Virus genome (UHGV): UHGV-1407733
Strand: one strand, 5' to 3'
Length of the DNA: 26,153 nt
Origin: a virus
Part shown: in pieces, positions 1,898 through 19,030 of the stretch
Layout: each line of letters begins with the position of its first letter
Position numbering within the stretch: position 1 is the stretch's first letter
Made by a program: the position numbers and the translations under genes
Notes under the pieces: generated by a model
Told to the model about the DNA's origin: nothing
Databases searched by the model: none
Seen by the model: the letters and a program-made list of their open reading frames with translations, nothing else

Positions 1898-2702
1898 GTT
1901 AGCTGATTACAGGCCTCAACTGGAGGTCGTGGAGCATCGCGTGGCAGATACCGAAGATGGTTTCATGCGCGTTGCTAACGAGATTACCGACAGTCTGCTG
2001 ATGGCTGATTTAACCGTCCGGCAGATGAAGGTGATGCTCGCTATCATGCGCAAGACATACGGATTCAATAAGCCGATGGATCGACTCACAAACACGCAGA
2101 TAGCAGCCATGACAGGTATTCATCACACTCATGTTTGCGCTGCCAAGCGCCAGCTTATTGAGCGTAAATTCCTCATTGCTGATGGCGTGAAATCGGAGTG
2201 AACAAGGTGGTTTCGCAGTGGATTAGCCAGGACAGCTTAACATTAGCTAAAACAGCTAATAAAACATTAGCCGAGTCGCTAATGGGTATAAGCCAAGTCA
2301 GCTAAACACAAAAGACAATATACAAAAGACAATAAATACAAATACCCCCTTACCCCCTAACGGGGGCGGCGATGGGCAGGTTAAACCTGAACGTCGCAAG
2401 GCAGAACGAATCGACTACGAATCCTTCCTGAACGCCTACAACACCGAAGTCGGTGACAGACTTCCACACGCTGTTGCGGTCAACGAAAAACGCAAACGCC
2501 GCCTGAAGAAAATCATCCCGCAACTGAAAACGCCAAACGTGGACGGTTTCAGAGCGTATGTCAGGGCGTTTGTGCATCAGGCCAAGCCGTTTTACTTCGG
2601 AGATAACGACACGGCTGGACGGCTGATTTTGATTACCTGCTGAGGGAAGATTCGTTAACGGGAGTTCGGGAAGGGAAGTTTGCAGACAGGGGGATTGCAT
2701 GA
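1884..2702 (+). CDS. O: O-type replication initiator; frame interrupted about three times
   Basis: N-terminal domain ([26 protein letters not shown]) matches the lambda O DNA-binding domain. Reading passes 0 to 2 near 2199, 2 to 0 near 2303, and 0 to 2 near 2615, ending [12 protein letters not shown]... with a stop at 2700-2702 overlapping the next ATG. Confidence 0.8.
2222..2306. repeat. Origin iterons (four inverted-repeat O-binding sites) inside O
   Basis: Four ATTAGC-N6/7-GCTAAT type inverted repeats starting at about 2222, 2242, 2266 and 2288 (period 20-24 bp), followed by an A/T-rich tract 2307-2345. This is the classic lambdoid ori architecture. Confidence 0.7.
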
Positions 2703-4075
2703 GACAGGATATCGAAGCGAGCGTTATCGGTGGCCTGCTGATTGGTGGATTAACACCAACTGCCAGTGACGTTCTGGCAACGCTTGAGCCGGAAGCGTTT
2801 TCAATTCCGCTCTACCGGAAAGCCTTCGAGGTTATCCGGAAGCAGGCGCGAAACAGAAACCTAATCGACGCGCTGATGGTTGCCGAGGCGTGCGGAGAGG
2901 AGCATTTCACGTCAATCCTGATGACCAGCAAAAACTGCCCGAGTGCCGCAAACCTGAAGGGATATGCCGGAATGGTCGCGGATAACTATCACCGCCGTCT
3001 GGTGCTGGAAATCATGGATGAAATGCGTGAACCAATTCAGAGCGGAACCATCGATACATCGAGTCAGGCGATGGACGAGCTTGTAAAGCGTCTTTCAGCC
3101 ATCAGAAAGCCCCGTGACGAGGTTAAACCTGTACGGTTAGGGGAAATCATCACTGACTACACTGACACGCTTGACAGGCGTCTGAGGAACGGAGAAGAGT
3201 CCGATACCCTGAAGACCGGAATCGAAGAACTTGACGCTATCACCGGAGGGATGAACGCGGAAGACCTGGTAATTATCGCCGCTCGTCCTGGTATGGGGAA
3301 AACCGAACTGGCGCTGAAGATTGCCGAAGGTGTTGCAAGCCGCGTTATTCCTGGTTCTGACGTCCGGAGCGGAGTATTGATTTTCTCAATGGAAATGAGC
3401 GCATTGCAGATTGCAGAGCGAAGCATTGCCAACGCCGGGAGGATGTCAGTTAGCGTGCTGCGAAATCCTGCATCGATGGATGACGAAGGCTGGGCGCGTG
3501 TTGCTAACGGCATGAGTCAGCTTGCAGATTTGGATGTGTGGGTAGTCGATGCCTCGCGGTTATCGGTCGAAGAAATTCGCTCAATCGCAGAACGGCACAA
3601 ACAGGAAAATCCAAACCTGTCACTCATCATGGTGGATTATCTTGGCCTGATTGAGAAGCCGAAAGCAGACCGCAACGACCTCGCAATTGCTCACATCTCC
3701 GGAAGCCTGAAGGCGATGGCGAAAGACCTGAAAACGCCTGTTATCTCCCTAAGTCAACTTTCGCGCGATGTTGAGAAGCGACCAAACAAACGCCCGACAA
3801 ACGCAGATTTGCGTGATTCAGGAAGCATTGAACAGGACGCAGACTCAATCATCATGCTCTATCGGGAAGCTGTATATGACGAGAACAGTAGCGCCGCGCC
3901 ATTTGCTGAAATCATCGTGACGAAAAACCGTTTTGGCTCGCTTGGTACGGTTTACCAGCGGTTCTGCAACGGACACTTTGTTGCATGTGACCAGGATGAA
4001 GCCAGACAGATTTGCACAGCATCAAATGCACCTGCTGCGCGTGGCAGACGATATGCACAAGGGGCTGACGTATGA
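2699..4075 (+). CDS. DnaB-family replicative helicase (P22 gene 12-type)
   Basis: 458-aa intact ORF with Walker [10 protein letters not shown], and MVDYLGLI and [35 protein letters not shown] motifs. ATGA overlap with the O stop. Confidence 0.9.
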
Positions 4076-4101
4076 CCATCTACATCACTGAGCTAATAAC
4101 A

Positions 4102-4130
4102 GGGGCTATTTACACAGTAGCCCTTTTTTA
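4102..4130 (+). terminator. tR2-like rho-independent terminator
   Basis: Hairpin GGGCTA-N9-TAGCCC followed by TTTTTT, 27 nt after the helicase stop and before the nin region. Confidence 0.6.
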
Positions 4131-4156
4131 TTGGATTAAGAACGAGGGGGATCCTG

Positions 4157-4308
4157 ATGGACACCGTTAACGGAATGTGTTCAGACGCACCGCGTGCCAA
4201 AAAATGTAAATGCGGAAAATCACCGACAATATTCGACATGGAGAACGGGTGCCAATCTACTGCGCTAACCACGCCGCTGTGGCGGCCGCGAATTATCGCA
4301 GTGCGGTA
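4157..4308 (+). CDS. Small Cys-rich hypothetical protein; extent uncertain
   Basis: ATG 4157 gives MDTVNGMCSDAPRAKKCKCGKSP... An alternative frame downstream (RVPIYCANHAAVAAANYRSAVTEWNNL) also looks protein-like, so a frame change is possible. Below track cut-off. Confidence 0.2.
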
Positions 4309-4348
4309 ACGGAGTGGAATAACCTGAAATCTGTTAGAGAGGGAAGTC

Positions 4349-4789
4349 ATGAAAAAACTAACCTTTGAAATTCGATCTCCGGCACATCAGCAAAACGCTA
4401 TTCACGCAGTACAGCAAATCCTTCCAGACCCAACCAAACCAATCGTAGTAACCATTCAGGAACGCAACCGTAGCTTAGACCAAAACCGAAAGCTTTGGGC
4501 TTGCCTTGGTGACGTCTCTCGTCAGGTTGAATGGCATGGTCGCTGGCTGGATGCGGAAAGCTGGAAGTGCGTTTTTACAGCAGCATTAAAGCAGCAGGAC
4601 GTTGTTCCTAACCTTGCCGGGAATGGCTTTGTGGTAATAGGCCAGTCAACCAGCAGGATGCGTGTAAGCGAATTTGCGGAGCTATTAGAGCTTATACAGG
4701 CATTCGGTACAGAGCGTGGCGTTAAGTGGTCAGACGAAGCGCGACTGGCTCTGGAGTGGAAAGCGCGATGGGGAGATCGGGCTGCATGA
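4349..4789 (+). CDS. ninB: NinB recombination protein
   Basis: 146-aa intact ORF at the nin-region entry point, the size and position of lambda NinB; stop overlaps the next ATG (ATGA). Confidence 0.8.
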   Translation: MKKLTFEIRSPAHQQNAIHAVQQILPDPTKPIVVTIQERNRSLDQNRKLWACLGDVSRQVEWHGRWLDAESWKCVFTAALKQQDVVPNLAGNGFVVIGQSTSRMRVSEFAELLELIQAFGTERGVKWSDEARLALEWKARWGDRAA

Positions 4790-5313
4790 CTATCAATCAA
4801 ATACGCCAGCACACGACAAGGACTGCTGGCAAACGCCGCTTTGGCTTTTTGATGCACTGGATATTGAGTTTGGATTCTGGCTGGATTCGGCAGCGAGCGA
4901 CAAAAATGCTCTGTGCGCTCACTGGGCTAACTGAGGCCGACGACGCGCTCAATTCTGAGTGGGTAAGCCACGGTGCAATCTGGAATAACCCACCGTACAG
5001 CAATATCAGGCCGTGGGTGGAAAAAGCCGCTGAGCAGTGCATACAACAGCGACAGACGGTAGTGATGCTTGTGCCAGAGGATATGTCTGTCGGATGGTTC
5101 AGCAAGGCTCTGGAGAGTGTTGACGAAGTTCGTATTATCACTGATGGACGGATTAATTTTATCGAACCATCGACAGGGCTGGAGAAGAAGGGAAACAGCA
5201 AAGGCTCCATGCTGCTGATTTGGCGACCGTTCATCAGTCCTCGACGGATGTTTACTACCGTATCCAAAGCGGCATTGATAGCGATCGGGCAGGGAGTCAG
5301 GAGGGCAGCATGA
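4786..5313 (+). CDS. dam: Phage Dam-family N6-adenine DNA methyltransferase; frame interrupted (1-2 changes)
   Basis: NPPY catalytic motif ([11 protein letters not shown]) in ORF 4726..5313. The N-terminal Dam signature ([25 protein letters not shown]) lies in a different frame (ORF 4716..4934), so the frame changes near 4930 and possibly near 4795. Confidence 0.8.
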
Positions 5314-5486
5314 GACGACAGCGACGAAGTATCACCGACATAATCTGTGAAAACTGCAAATACCTTCCAACGAAACGCTCCAGAAATAAACGCAAGCCAA
5401 TCCCAAAAGAATCTGACGTAAAAACCTTCAATTACACGGCTCACCTGTGGGATATCCGGTGGCTAAGACATCGTGCGAGGAAATGA
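5310..5486 (+). CDS. nin-region small basic protein (NinE-like)
   Basis: 58-aa [23 protein letters not shown]... with RBS AGGAGG; ATGA overlaps at both ends. Assignment to NinE is from recall only. Confidence 0.5.
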
Positions 5487-5890
5487 CAATGCTTTTAATT
5501 CAACCTGGATTTGGCCTTAGCATCAAAAAAGGGCACATGTTTGGTGAGAAAGAGTCACAACGAAAAATGGTGTCTATCCGGTTGCCATTTATCAGTATTT
5601 ATTGGCTAAACAGGGAGGCAACAAATTATTGGTATACATGCGCCAGAGCAGCATTCAACGATCCTGAGTGGTTTATAGAAAATCATCACGCGGTTCGTCA
5701 GGCAAAGAGAAAAGCGAATACGACATATATGAAGGCATATCAGGATGCTTGGAAAGATCATCGTGACCGATGCCAGCAAGACATGGAAAAGCTTGAATCA
5801 GAAAACATGGAATTAAGACGAAAGCTCGGTGAAGCAAAACGAGACATTGATGCTTACAAGCGACTTTTTAATGGTGAAAGCCATGCTTAG
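5483..5890 (+). CDS. Hypothetical nin-region protein with C-terminal coiled coil
   Basis: ATG 5483 overlapping the upstream stop; 135-aa product with a predicted coiled coil ([29 protein letters not shown]). No family recognised. Confidence 0.5.
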
Positions 5891-6058
5891 TCCATCCCAA
5901 TCCCTTCAATACCAGAAAGAAAGCGTCGAGCGAGCTTTAACGTGCGCTAACTGCGGTCAGAAGCTGCATGTGCTGGAAGTTCACGTGTGCTCCGATGCTG
6001 CGCAGAACTGATGAGCGATCCGAATAGCTCAATGTACGAGGAAGAAGACGATGAGTGA
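5883..6058 (+). CDS. ninF: NinF-like protein; frame interrupted once
   Basis: LTCANCGQKLHVLEVHVC matches lambda NinF; the conserved tail CAELMSDPNSSMYEEEDDE continues in another frame, implying a 1-nt change near 5990. Confidence 0.75.
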
Positions 6059-6263
6059 TTACCTGAAATGGTATCTCTGCCACCGCTGGCTAATTAAGTT
6101 TGCTGTAAAAGACTGGATGACAGCGGATGCCAACAAGCTTAAGCAAAGAAAAGACTATTACTACGCCAGAATGAAGGAAAACTACTGCTCAATTCGCACT
6201 CGCATATTTATTAAAAAAGACCTTCAGTCAATTCTTCAATTGCGAGGGAAGGTAAATGGCTAA
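6051..6263 (+). CDS. Hypothetical protein (70 aa)
   Basis: ORF with ATGA coupling to the upstream gene; no recognisable motif. Confidence 0.45.
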   Translation: MSDYLKWYLCHRWLIKFAVKDWMTADANKLKQRKDYYYARMKENYCSIRTRIFIKKDLQSILQLRGKVNG

Positions 6264-6545
6264 CCTACGCAAAGAAGCGCGCGGCAGAGAATGCCAGGTA
6301 CGTATTTACGGCATATGCAATGGCAATCCTGAAACTACAGTTCTGGCACATTACCGGATGGCTGGAATTTGCGGAACGGGAATGAAGCCTGACGACCTGA
6401 TCGGCGCATGGGCTTGTAGCGCGTGTCACGATGAAATCGACCGACGCACCCATAACCTCGACAACAAAGACGCCAGACTTACCACCTCGAAGGCGTGATC
6501 AGGACGCAGGCGATACTGCTGAAGGAGGGGAAGATTAAGTCATGA
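6256..6545 (+). CDS. DUF1364 / YbcO-like phage protein; frame interrupted once
   Basis: MANLRKEARGRECQVRI...CSACHDEIDRRTH matches the YbcO family. The conserved C-terminus HLEGVIRTQAILLKEGKIKS is in another frame, with a shift near 6480; stop overlaps the rusA ATG. Confidence 0.7.
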
Positions 6546-6904
6546 ACGAATATCAGTTTGTGCTTCCATACCCGCCGTCGGTGAACACCTACTGGCGAAG
6601 ACGGGGAAGCCAATACTACATCAGCGATAAAGGCCAGAAATACCGAAAAGACGTTCAGAAAATCATCCGCCAACTCAAGTTAGACATTTTCACCAAATCA
6701 CGACTCCGCATCAAAGTCATCGCAGACGTTCCAGACTCCCGCCGCCGCGACCTCGACAACATCCTGAAAGGTTTACTCGACTCCCTTATCCACGCCGGAT
6801 TTGCGGAAGACGACGAGCAATTCGATGACATTCGCGTAATTCGTGGTGTGAAAGTACCAGGCGGACGGCTTGGAATAAAAATCACCGAACTGGAGAACGT
6901 ATGA
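6542..6904 (+). CDS. rusA: RusA Holliday-junction resolvase
   Basis: 120-aa intact ORF with the RusA signature (YPPSVNTYWRRRG...DLDNILKGLLDSL). Confidence 0.9.
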   Translation: MNEYQFVLPYPPSVNTYWRRRGSQYYISDKGQKYRKDVQKIIRQLKLDIFTKSRLRIKVIADVPDSRRRDLDNILKGLLDSLIHAGFAEDDEQFDDIRVIRGVKVPGGRLGIKITELENV

Positions 6905-7085: not shown

Positions 7086-7602
7086 ATGAGCATAAGAGAA
7101 CTAAACCTCACCAAGAACAGCACGATTGGCTGAATGGCTGGCTTGAACTGTGGGGCGCATGGTTTATTCAGGCCGCCTGGAAAAGCGCATGAGCAGCGTA
7201 ATAGCTAAGTTCATGGAGAGCGTAGAGCCGGGAAGAGTTATGACAAGGCCAATGTGTAATGATGATGATGGAATGTTGATTTCTCAGGTCGTCGATTCCG
7301 TCATGTACATTGACAAGAAAGCCTTTAGCATCCTCCTCAGCTACTACGCTCATGGTTCATCTAAGCGAGCAATTGCATCCTACTATCACGCGACTGCAAA
7401 GCCACGCAAGATGTGTGGACGTGGTGGCGAGGGATGGAGAAAACCTTCACTGGCAACCTGTAGAAACGAAATTGACGACATCCTGAAAGCGTCATTATTT
7501 GTTTTATACCAGCCGATGCAAAATGCTTTCAAAATGCGTAAACGTGTTGAGAAAGTTAAGCATGTTGCTGTTAAAAGCCTTGACATGCAATTAGCCATTT
7601 AG
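7086..7602 (+). CDS. Q: Late antiterminator Q, 82/P22 gene 23 family; frame interrupted twice
   Basis: WLELWGAW, RPMCNDDDGM and LLSYYAHG motifs typical of the Phage_antitermQ family. N-terminal 40 codons occupy two other frames, with shifts near 7115 and 7190. Confidence 0.75.
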
Positions 7603-7609
7603 CCATAAT
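7580..7609 (+). promoter_or_regulatory. pR'-like late promoter
   Basis: TTGACA (7580-7585), 18-nt spacer, CATAAT (7604-7609), overlapping the Q stop, where lambdoid late promoters sit. Confidence 0.55.
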
Positions 7610-7620
7610 TAGAAGGTAAG

Positions 7621-7660
7621 CTGCCGTTAGTGACTCTTAAGTTGCAACGGTGGCTTTTTT
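7621..7660 (+). terminator. tR'-like terminator of a short leader (6S-like) transcript
   Basis: GC-rich hairpin (CCGTT...AACGG with flanking pairs) followed by TTTTTT at 7655-7660, about 15-45 nt downstream of the pR' -10. Confidence 0.5.
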
Positions 7661-8100
7661 ATTTGCACAACAGGTAAGAGCATTGAACCCGCAGACCTCG
7701 CGGAATTGGTGAAAGGTGCCGCGCAGTGCTCTTATCGTTGTGGTGAATGCACAGGCTGATGTGTAAGGGCAAGAATCTTTCGCTGGATTCGGTGTGGCCA
7801 CGTAGCCCGCTGTAGGCAGTTGCAGCAAACCGGAGATCAGCACCGGTCGCCACAATCCAAACTGAGCCGTAGCCACTGGCTATCATGAATTCATCGGTGA
7901 TAGTTACGCTGCGGACTTCTACACATGACCTTCGTGAAAGCGGGTAGCAAGAGGTTGCGCTAACAACCTCCTGCCGTTTTGCTCGTGCATATCGGTCACG
8001 AACAAATCTGATTACTAAACACAGTAGCCTGGATTTGTTCTATCAGTAATCGACCTTATTCCTAATTAAATAGAGCAAATCCCCTTATTGGGGGTAAGAC

Positions 8101-17613: not shown

Positions 17614-19030
17614 ATGCCGATTCAGCAACTTCCGCTTATGAAAGGTGTCGGCAAAGACTTTCGAAACGCCGACTATATCGACTATCTGCCAGTGAATATG
17701 CTGGCTACGCCCAAAGAAATACTCAACAGCAGCGGATATCTTCGCTCATTCCCGGGCATTGCCAAACGCTCTGATGTAAACGGTGTATCGCGCGGAGTTG
17801 AGTACAACATGGCGCAGAATGCTGTTTATCGCGTGTGTGGCGGCAAGCTGTACAAAGGAGAAAGTGAAGTCGGTGATGTTGCCGGAAGTGGTCGTGTATC
17901 AATGGCGCATGGTCGAACATCTCAGGCTGTAGGCGTTAATGGTCAACTGGTTGAGTATCGCTATGATGGCACGGTTAAAACCGTCTCAAACTGGCCTGCA
18001 GACAGCGGATTTACGCAGTATGAGTTAGGTTCAGTCCGCGACATTACACGCTTACGTGGGCGTTATGCGTGGTCAAAAGACGGCACGGATTCATGGTTTA
18101 TTACTGACCTTGAAGACGAATCGCACCCTGACCGATACAGCGCACAATATCGCGCAGAATCGCAGCCTGACGGCATTATCGGCATCGGAACATGGCGAGA
18201 CTTCATTGTCTGCTTTGGTTCATCAACGATTGAATATTTCTCCATGACTGGTGCAACCACTGTTGGTGCCGCTTTGTATGTCGCACAGCCATCGCTGATG
18301 GTGCAGAAAGGTATTGCCGGGACTTACTGCAAAACGCCGTTTGCTGATTCGTATGCGTTCATCAGCAATCCGGCAACAGGCGCGCCTTCTGTATACATCA
18401 TCGGCTCCGGTCAGGTATCACCAATAGCCAGCGCGAGCATTGAGAAAATCCTCCGCTCCTACACTGCTGATGAACTGGCTGATGGCGTGATGGAATCGTT
18501 GCGGTTTGATGCTCATGAGTTGCTGATTATTCACCTGCCGCGCCACGTCCTCGTGTACGACGCATCTTCAAGCGCCAATGTCCGCAATGGTGTGTACTGA
18601 AAACAGGCCTGTATGACGATGTGTACCGCGCTATCGACTTCATTTACGAAGGCAACCAAATTACGTGCGGCGATAAGTTGAATCGATGACAGGGAAATTG
18701 CAGTTCGATATCAGCAGCCAGTACGACAGGCAACAGGAACACCTGCTGTTTACTCCGTTGTTCAAAGCGGATAACGCCAGAGTTTTCGACCTTGAGGTTG
18801 AGTCGTCAACTGGCGTTGCGCAGTATGCTGACCGCCTTTTTCTCTCTGCAACCACTGACGGCATCAATTACGGGCGTGAGCAGATGATTGAGCAGAATGA
18901 ACCGTTCGTTTACGACAAACGTGTTTTGTGGAAGCGAGTAGGGCGCATCAGGAAAAATGTCGGCTTCAAATTGCGCGTTATCACGAAGTCACCTGTCACT
19001 CTGTCTGGTTGCCAGATAAGGATTGAGTAA
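17614..19030 (+). CDS. Head-completion protein (P22 gp10-like); frame interrupted twice
   Basis: About 472 codons in three frames (17614..18600, about 18597..18683, 18686..19030), matching the size of P22 gp10. Confidence 0.7.

Follow-up and report, generated by a model that had tools for sequence, protein, structure and literature searches.

The DNA analysed here, called the window throughout, is a stretch of 26,153 nucleotides that makes up an entire SPAdes metagenome contig (ena:ERZ504554:NODE_318_length_26153_cov_2.441943; k-mer coverage 2.44). It represents a P22-like phage or prophage, whose closest relatives are CUS-3, E212, Kapi1 and HK620, with the immunity region at one end and the DNA-injection genes at the other. 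Three plus-strand genes follow one another closely in its nin region. The first is ninB (4349..4789; PF05772), which is 96% identical to lambda ninB, and the third is ninE (5310..5486), which matches PF05322 over its full length with 148 bits and is 97% identical to lambda ninE. Between them the ORF list places an N6-adenine DNA methyltransferase gene (4786..5313; ATG to TGA, 175 aa; PF05869/TIGR01712). Its start codon overlaps the ninB stop codon in an ATGA at 4786-4789, and its stop codon overlaps the ninE start codon in another ATGA at 5310-5313. The rest of the nin region comprises YbcO, RusA, Q and small ORFs. ninE and ninF are separated by a 133-aa ORF (5489-5890) that has no significant match to any Pfam family; its product recurs unchanged on many contigs from E. 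coli and metagenomes (55 index blocks, 24 contigs read).

The methylase is flanked by ninB and ninE and has no gene for a cognate restriction endonuclease beside it; it is thus an orphan, or solitary, methyltransferase, as had been proposed from the sequence alone. Upon alignment of window positions 4300-5600 to the lambda nin region, matches were obtained at 4337-4789 (ninB) and 5317-5483 (ninE), and nothing aligned between the two. In lambda the same ninB-ninE slot is filled by ninC (NP_040635, PAPS-reductase-like) together with ninD. The earlier proposal that the methylase replaces ninC is therefore right as to position, but the lambda slot holds two genes and not ninC alone, and the replacement is a mosaic gene exchange with no functional equivalence. 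In CUS-3 ninB abuts ninE (5462-5465 of the CUS-3 sequence, L003) and the slot is empty. The methylase gene forms a self-contained mosaic cassette, delimited at each end by an ATGA stop/start overlap.

A first reading of the sequence had placed a methylase with an NPPY motif at 4786-5313, and we found the catalytic motif (motif IV) there, at 4987..4998 on the plus strand and in the frame of the ORF as given; its residues N68, P69, P70 and Y71 are invariant among 36 family members. The Dam N-terminal signature claimed in the same reading is also present, as DCWQTP (4821-4838) and LDSAAS (4881-4898), but both elements can be read only in the frame of another ORF, 4716-4934, and not in that of ORF 4786-5313. 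The frame of ORF 4716-4934 is the true one for the plus-strand stretch 4797..4923. The PF05869 match is split in the same way: the ORF as given covers profile positions 46-167 only (153.4 bits, cut-off 28.1), and the fragment in the other frame covers positions 1-45 (47.8 bits). The TIGR01712 score of the ORF as given is 178.9 bits (cut-off 97.05). The disruption of the methylase gene is thus present in the sequence as given, where the DxWxTP and LDxAA elements are out of frame with the catalytic part.

Alignment of the window to the intact methylase genes of HK140, Louie and E212 located two lesions. The first is a one-base deletion at 4795..4796 of the plus strand, where the window has AA and all intact relatives have AAA, and the frame is lost after codon 3. 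The second is a one-base insertion at 4924..4926 of the same strand, where the window has GGG and all intact relatives have GG, and the true frame is regained. Being of opposite sign, the two indels compensate each other, and the ORF remains open at its normal 175 aa with residues 4-47 out of frame. The disruption described earlier is therefore real as a feature of the given sequence and is visible in the split PF05869 match, but it consists of two compensating indels and not of one frame change. In comparison with HK140, both substitutions that fall within the shifted stretch (codons 9 and 44) leave the amino acid unchanged when read in the ancestral frame, and over the whole gene four of the five relatives show 0-1 non-synonymous against 6-10 synonymous differences. 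After repair of both lesions the two N-terminal elements are in frame with the catalytic part, and the protein spans PF05869 positions 1-167 (217.1 bits) and TIGR01712 positions 1-165 (264.3 bits).

The allele with the two indels appears to be private to this contig. Exact searches with a 29-mer for the deletion and a 24-mer for the insertion found neither among the GTDB species genomes and IMG/VR, an absence that is consistent with private error, short of proof. Among complete E. coli genomes, none of the best-scoring matches listed (identity at most 98.8% over 251 bp) carries the allele, and the protein as given forms a one-member cluster from a single contig in a collection of about 15 billion proteins. 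Clusters of the intact protein, by comparison, hold thousands of member sequences. The size of these clusters, together with the single-frame organization of the gene in all relatives examined, also bears on the idea that programmed ribosomal frameshifting or transcriptional slippage still yields the full-length enzyme from the sequence as given. Both sites are indeed short homopolymers, but the runs are of just 2-3 bases and two events of opposite sign would be required; we rejected this explanation because the intact relatives examined are single-frame, and its probability is negligible.

With its frame restored, the gene is an ordinary copy of a small orphan N6-adenine methyltransferase that many lambdoid and P22-like phages carry among their nin genes and that is already known. 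It passes the tests of both phage N-6-adenine-methyltransferase profiles, PF05869 ('Dam') and the TIGR01712 equivalog, as given and repaired. The closest named relative, and the type member of this enzyme group, is M.EcoVT2Dam, the product of dam of phage VT2-Sakai (BAA94133.1; AP000422 16989-17516), which like the repaired window protein has 175 aa and differs from it by one residue, M164I (counted as codon 165 in the codon comparison). This near-identity, along with the profile scores of the repaired protein, bears out the N6-adenine methyltransferase assignment made from the sequence alone. The VT2-Sakai gene likewise lies between a ninB homolog and ninE, although its host is an Stx2 lambdoid podovirus whereas the window is P22-like, and the two indels occur in the window copy only. 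M.EcoVT2Dam was reportedly cloned by Radlinska and Bujnicki (2001). The methylase genes of E212 (QVW53970.1), HK140 (AFH20297.1), Louie and Sf101 are 97.7-98.4% identical at the DNA level, and that of E212 has 0 non-synonymous differences from the repaired window gene. E. coli prophages carry copies annotated as 'phage N-6-adenine-methyltransferase', among them an allele on the isolate contig L017, discussed below, that is identical except for the two indels. Matches to a 701-bp query that takes in the gene occur in 399 phage records, and of 5426 complete E. coli genomes 1582 (~29%) match a 251-bp query made up of the ninB end and the 5'-most 205 bases of the methylase gene. Among lambdoid and P22-like phages the gene is a textbook accessory, and a near-identical protein has already been characterised.

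Longer or fused 'Dam' products also occur in the protein database, for example Dam+NinE (233-235 aa), Dam+CII, RusA+Dam and NinB+Dam (entries P0033, P0036, P0042, P0045, P0053 and P0067); these are likely to come from frameshifts or assembly errors in other records as well.

The description of the enzyme as 'Dam family' needs qualification: it holds in the sense of PF05869, but the protein falls outside the family to which E. coli Dam and T4 Dam belong. The reported GATC target and the N6-adenine chemistry are shared with those enzymes. A Pfam scan at E <=0.01, however, returned PF05869 only and no match to the canonical Dam family; the window protein, with 175 residues, is shorter than the E. 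coli Dam chains of 244-254 residues, and the likeness in fold to E. coli Dam is distant (Foldseek E ~0.02, query TM-score 0.35). Nearer in kind are HP1 Dam and T1 Dam (M.T1), which are named as similar in the VT2-Sakai annotation and are small orphan phage enzymes of the same Pfam/TIGRFAM family, albeit presumably more distant in sequence. HP1 Dam and T1 Dam are the older members of PF05869.

An AlphaFold model was built on a 99%-identical intact homolog (P0034) with a 36-sequence alignment, rather than on the ORF as given. The model (pLDDT 88, pTM 0.86) is a single alpha/beta domain matching the Rossmann-type fold of AdoMet-dependent methyltransferases, and this single 175-residue domain includes no separate DNA-recognition domain. 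A sequence search of the PDB returned no relative (best E 0.24, that is, chance), whereas the best fold matches there, with E from 2e-4 to 2e-2, are N6-adenine methyltransferases, headed by CAPAM/PCIF1 (E 2e-4, query TM-score 0.55-0.58) and followed by CamA, TrmM, E. coli Dam and M.BseCI. The stretch that is shifted in the window corresponds in this model to a helix at residues 19-29, just after T17 and P18, and a strand at residues 31-36, which includes L33, D34 and A36; NPPY follows a further strand at residues 64-68. By analogy with the motif nomenclature of amino-methyltransferases, DCWQTP and LDSAAS would correspond to motifs X and I, presumably involved in S-adenosylmethionine binding, and NPPY to motif IV. 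The residues replaced by the shift include the invariant T17, P18, L33, D34 and A36. Because the shifted stretch is the predicted S-adenosylmethionine-binding part, the product as given, if made, should be inactive.

In the mechanism we propose, the intact protein would act as a minimal Rossmann-fold enzyme, binding S-adenosylmethionine via its N-terminal helix and first strand (TP...LDSAAS), and the target adenine would be flipped into the NPPY pocket, leading to methylation of GATC. According to one report, which cites Radlinska and Bujnicki 2001, M.EcoVT2Dam 'is known to target 5'-GATC-3'' (PMC6602927), and on this second-hand citation the window enzyme, one residue apart, would be expected to share the specificity. 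The enzyme may be made alongside the early-right (nin) genes in lytic growth. As to its role, one may conjecture anti-restriction, an epigenetic function, or a part in completing GATC methylation while phage DNA replicates rapidly. A methylation assay on DNA from a dam+ lysogen would be uninformative, since the host Dam marks the same GATC sites; moreover, from what is established about lambdoid regulation, repression of the nin genes is to be expected in a lysogen. GATC is depleted over the whole window (1-26153), with 47 sites where base composition predicts ~101 and a trinucleotide Markov estimate ~135, and this GATC-depleted phage nonetheless carries a predicted GATC methylase. GATC-poor prophage regions are mentioned in the same report (PMC6602927).

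The two lesions of the methylase gene belong to a pattern that extends along the contig. Set against four intact relatives (CUS-3, E212 and prophages from E. coli SBF22 and CU37RT-2), the window shows 17-27 isolated indels of one or two bases for every 15-19 kb of alignment, or ~1.4 per kb; when the four relatives are aligned to one another, the count is 0-2. The ~35 indels span window positions 2190-24515, lie nearly all in homopolymer runs and break nearly every long gene, including O, YbcO, ninH, Q and the genes for the large terminase, portal, scaffold, coat, head-completion and injection proteins. Examples are found at 2613, 4254, 5996, 6479, 6943, 7054, 7113, 7161, 9883, 10780, 12028 and 12067 in the first half of the contig and at 13250, 13501, 14731, 15049, 15454, 18580, 18678, 19339, 20280, 21580, 23247 and 24074 in the second. 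Deletions (~29) outnumber insertions (~6). Runs of at least 2 bases contain 34 of the 35 sites, against a background of 45% of bases (binomial P ~1e-11 to 2.5e-11), and runs of at least 3 bases contain 24 of the 35, against 14% of bases (binomial P ~5e-13). At 1.39 indels per kb, 0.73 would be expected in the 528 bp of the methylase ORF, and the probability of two or more is 0.17. The particular outcome, two indels of opposite sign with a 44-codon out-of-frame stretch free of stop codons, would be a mildly improbable coincidence under pure error.

When the 35 indels are repaired, full-length products are obtained for O (273 aa), the small terminase (146), the large terminase (471), the portal (732), the scaffold (298), the coat (419), Q (172) and virion proteins of 233, 229, 447 and 707 aa; an extra, unrepaired indel near 18678 still divides the 472-aa head-completion gene. 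Nonsense substitutions, large deletions and insertion sequences are all absent from the repaired window. This composition is at odds with the view that the whole prophage is truly decayed, with real frameshifts in most of its genes including the methylase. Defective prophages are frequent in E. coli and nearly every long gene of the window is broken, but decay would have to have produced ~35 frameshifts without any of these other lesions.

The cI-like repressor gene on the minus strand (509-983) likewise appears split, into an S24-peptidase ORF (509-730) and an HTH ORF (723-983). This is probably another one-base indel; the references compared carry a different repressor (70% identity).

Near-identical relatives were reached by exact look-up of the 133-aa protein encoded at 5489-5890, whereas a search with the whole window against complete E. 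coli genomes and phage records had returned only mosaic relatives at 94-97.5% and none near-identical. One of them is L017, a contig of an E. coli isolate assembly (BFQE01000049.1; GCA_005386945.1). Over the 4,120 bases of window 2491-6610 it has no mismatch to the window, and the two differ by exactly six one-base gaps, located at about 2612, 4253, 4795, 4924, 5995 and 6478; both methylase indels are among these six. Its methylase gene is intact, with DxWxTP and LDxAA in frame with the catalytic part, and the product equals the repaired window protein at every residue. Both methylase indels are also absent from four further contigs, L011, L012, L013 and L016, of which L013 has a coverage of 72.9. 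In mutation-accumulation data from E. coli, substitutions exceed indels several-fold. The spectrum of 6 indels to 0 substitutions against L017 is unlike that of natural mutation, and it was on this spectrum, with ~35 frameshifts and 0 nonsense codons, that decay of the whole prophage was rejected.

Low-coverage metagenome contigs provide a further comparison. A gut-metagenome contig of coverage 0.95 (L010; OQIC01012724) has the window haplotype across the methylase gene without the window's two indels, and shows instead two of its own, a GGGG run shortened to GGG at 4773 and an AAAAA run shortened to AAAA at 5025. L016 (ERZ504677 NODE_76, coverage 5.9), whose accession is near that of the window (ERZ504554), has private indels at 4204 and 8394. 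Such differing private homopolymer indels on otherwise identical DNA are, as judged from these alignments, evidently low-coverage read errors and not inherited mutations, and those of L010 and L016 suggest a systematic read-error problem in low-coverage gut-metagenome assemblies of this kind. They also speak against a decayed prophage, to which, all evidence considered, we assign a very small probability.

Taken together, low coverage, the contig-wide homopolymer pattern, the indel-only spectrum and the intact near-identical sequences support, through comparison of assembled sequences, the reading of both frame changes in the methylase gene as homopolymer-length errors of a low-coverage contig and not as a property of the phage, with a probability of roughly 0.93. 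We accordingly attribute the mismatch in frame between the N-terminal signature and the catalytic part to sequencing error rather than to the gene itself.

The main competing possibility is that the phage population sampled truly carries both indels, which would define a recent pseudogene or recoded allele with a novel 44-residue N-terminal stretch, lacking the cofactor-binding part and catalytically dead. Its appeal lies in an ORF that is still open at normal length, in two indels that compensate each other, and in the location of both in homopolymers, which are natural slippage sites too; real mutational indels likewise favour such runs. Yet the allele is a singleton, the isolate sequence that matches it over 4.1 kb without a substitution is intact, ~33 further indels of the same sort lie on the same contig in essential genes, and coverage is 2.44. 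Within the gene itself, substitutions that fall in the shifted stretch are silent when read in the ancestral frame, and T17, P18, L33, D34 and A36, invariant elsewhere, are lost. We consider real indels highly improbable, if slightly less so than decay of the whole prophage. Were the double frameshift real, it would leave this phage lineage with a freshly inactivated enzyme, or with a protein that keeps its NPPY half behind a new N-terminus, an outcome that is likewise highly improbable.

Under the preferred reading of homopolymer-length error, other apparent frameshifts, pseudogenes or split genes on this contig are to be read as the same error pattern. More generally, the case serves as a caution that homopolymer errors in low-coverage metagenome contigs can mimic pseudogenes. 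Such errors can even give open ORFs of normal length with a scrambled segment, which then enter databases as singletons under the family name.

Outside the methylase locus, a mosaic junction was observed after ninH, at window positions 7090-7930, with identity restored at 7930, ahead of the holin gene. The contigs L011, L013 and L016 are 99.2-99.7% identical to the window up to 7090 and encode a 207-aa PF03589 antiterminator (4600-5223), whereas past the junction the window encodes a 172-aa Q-type antiterminator of PF06530, as in CUS-3.
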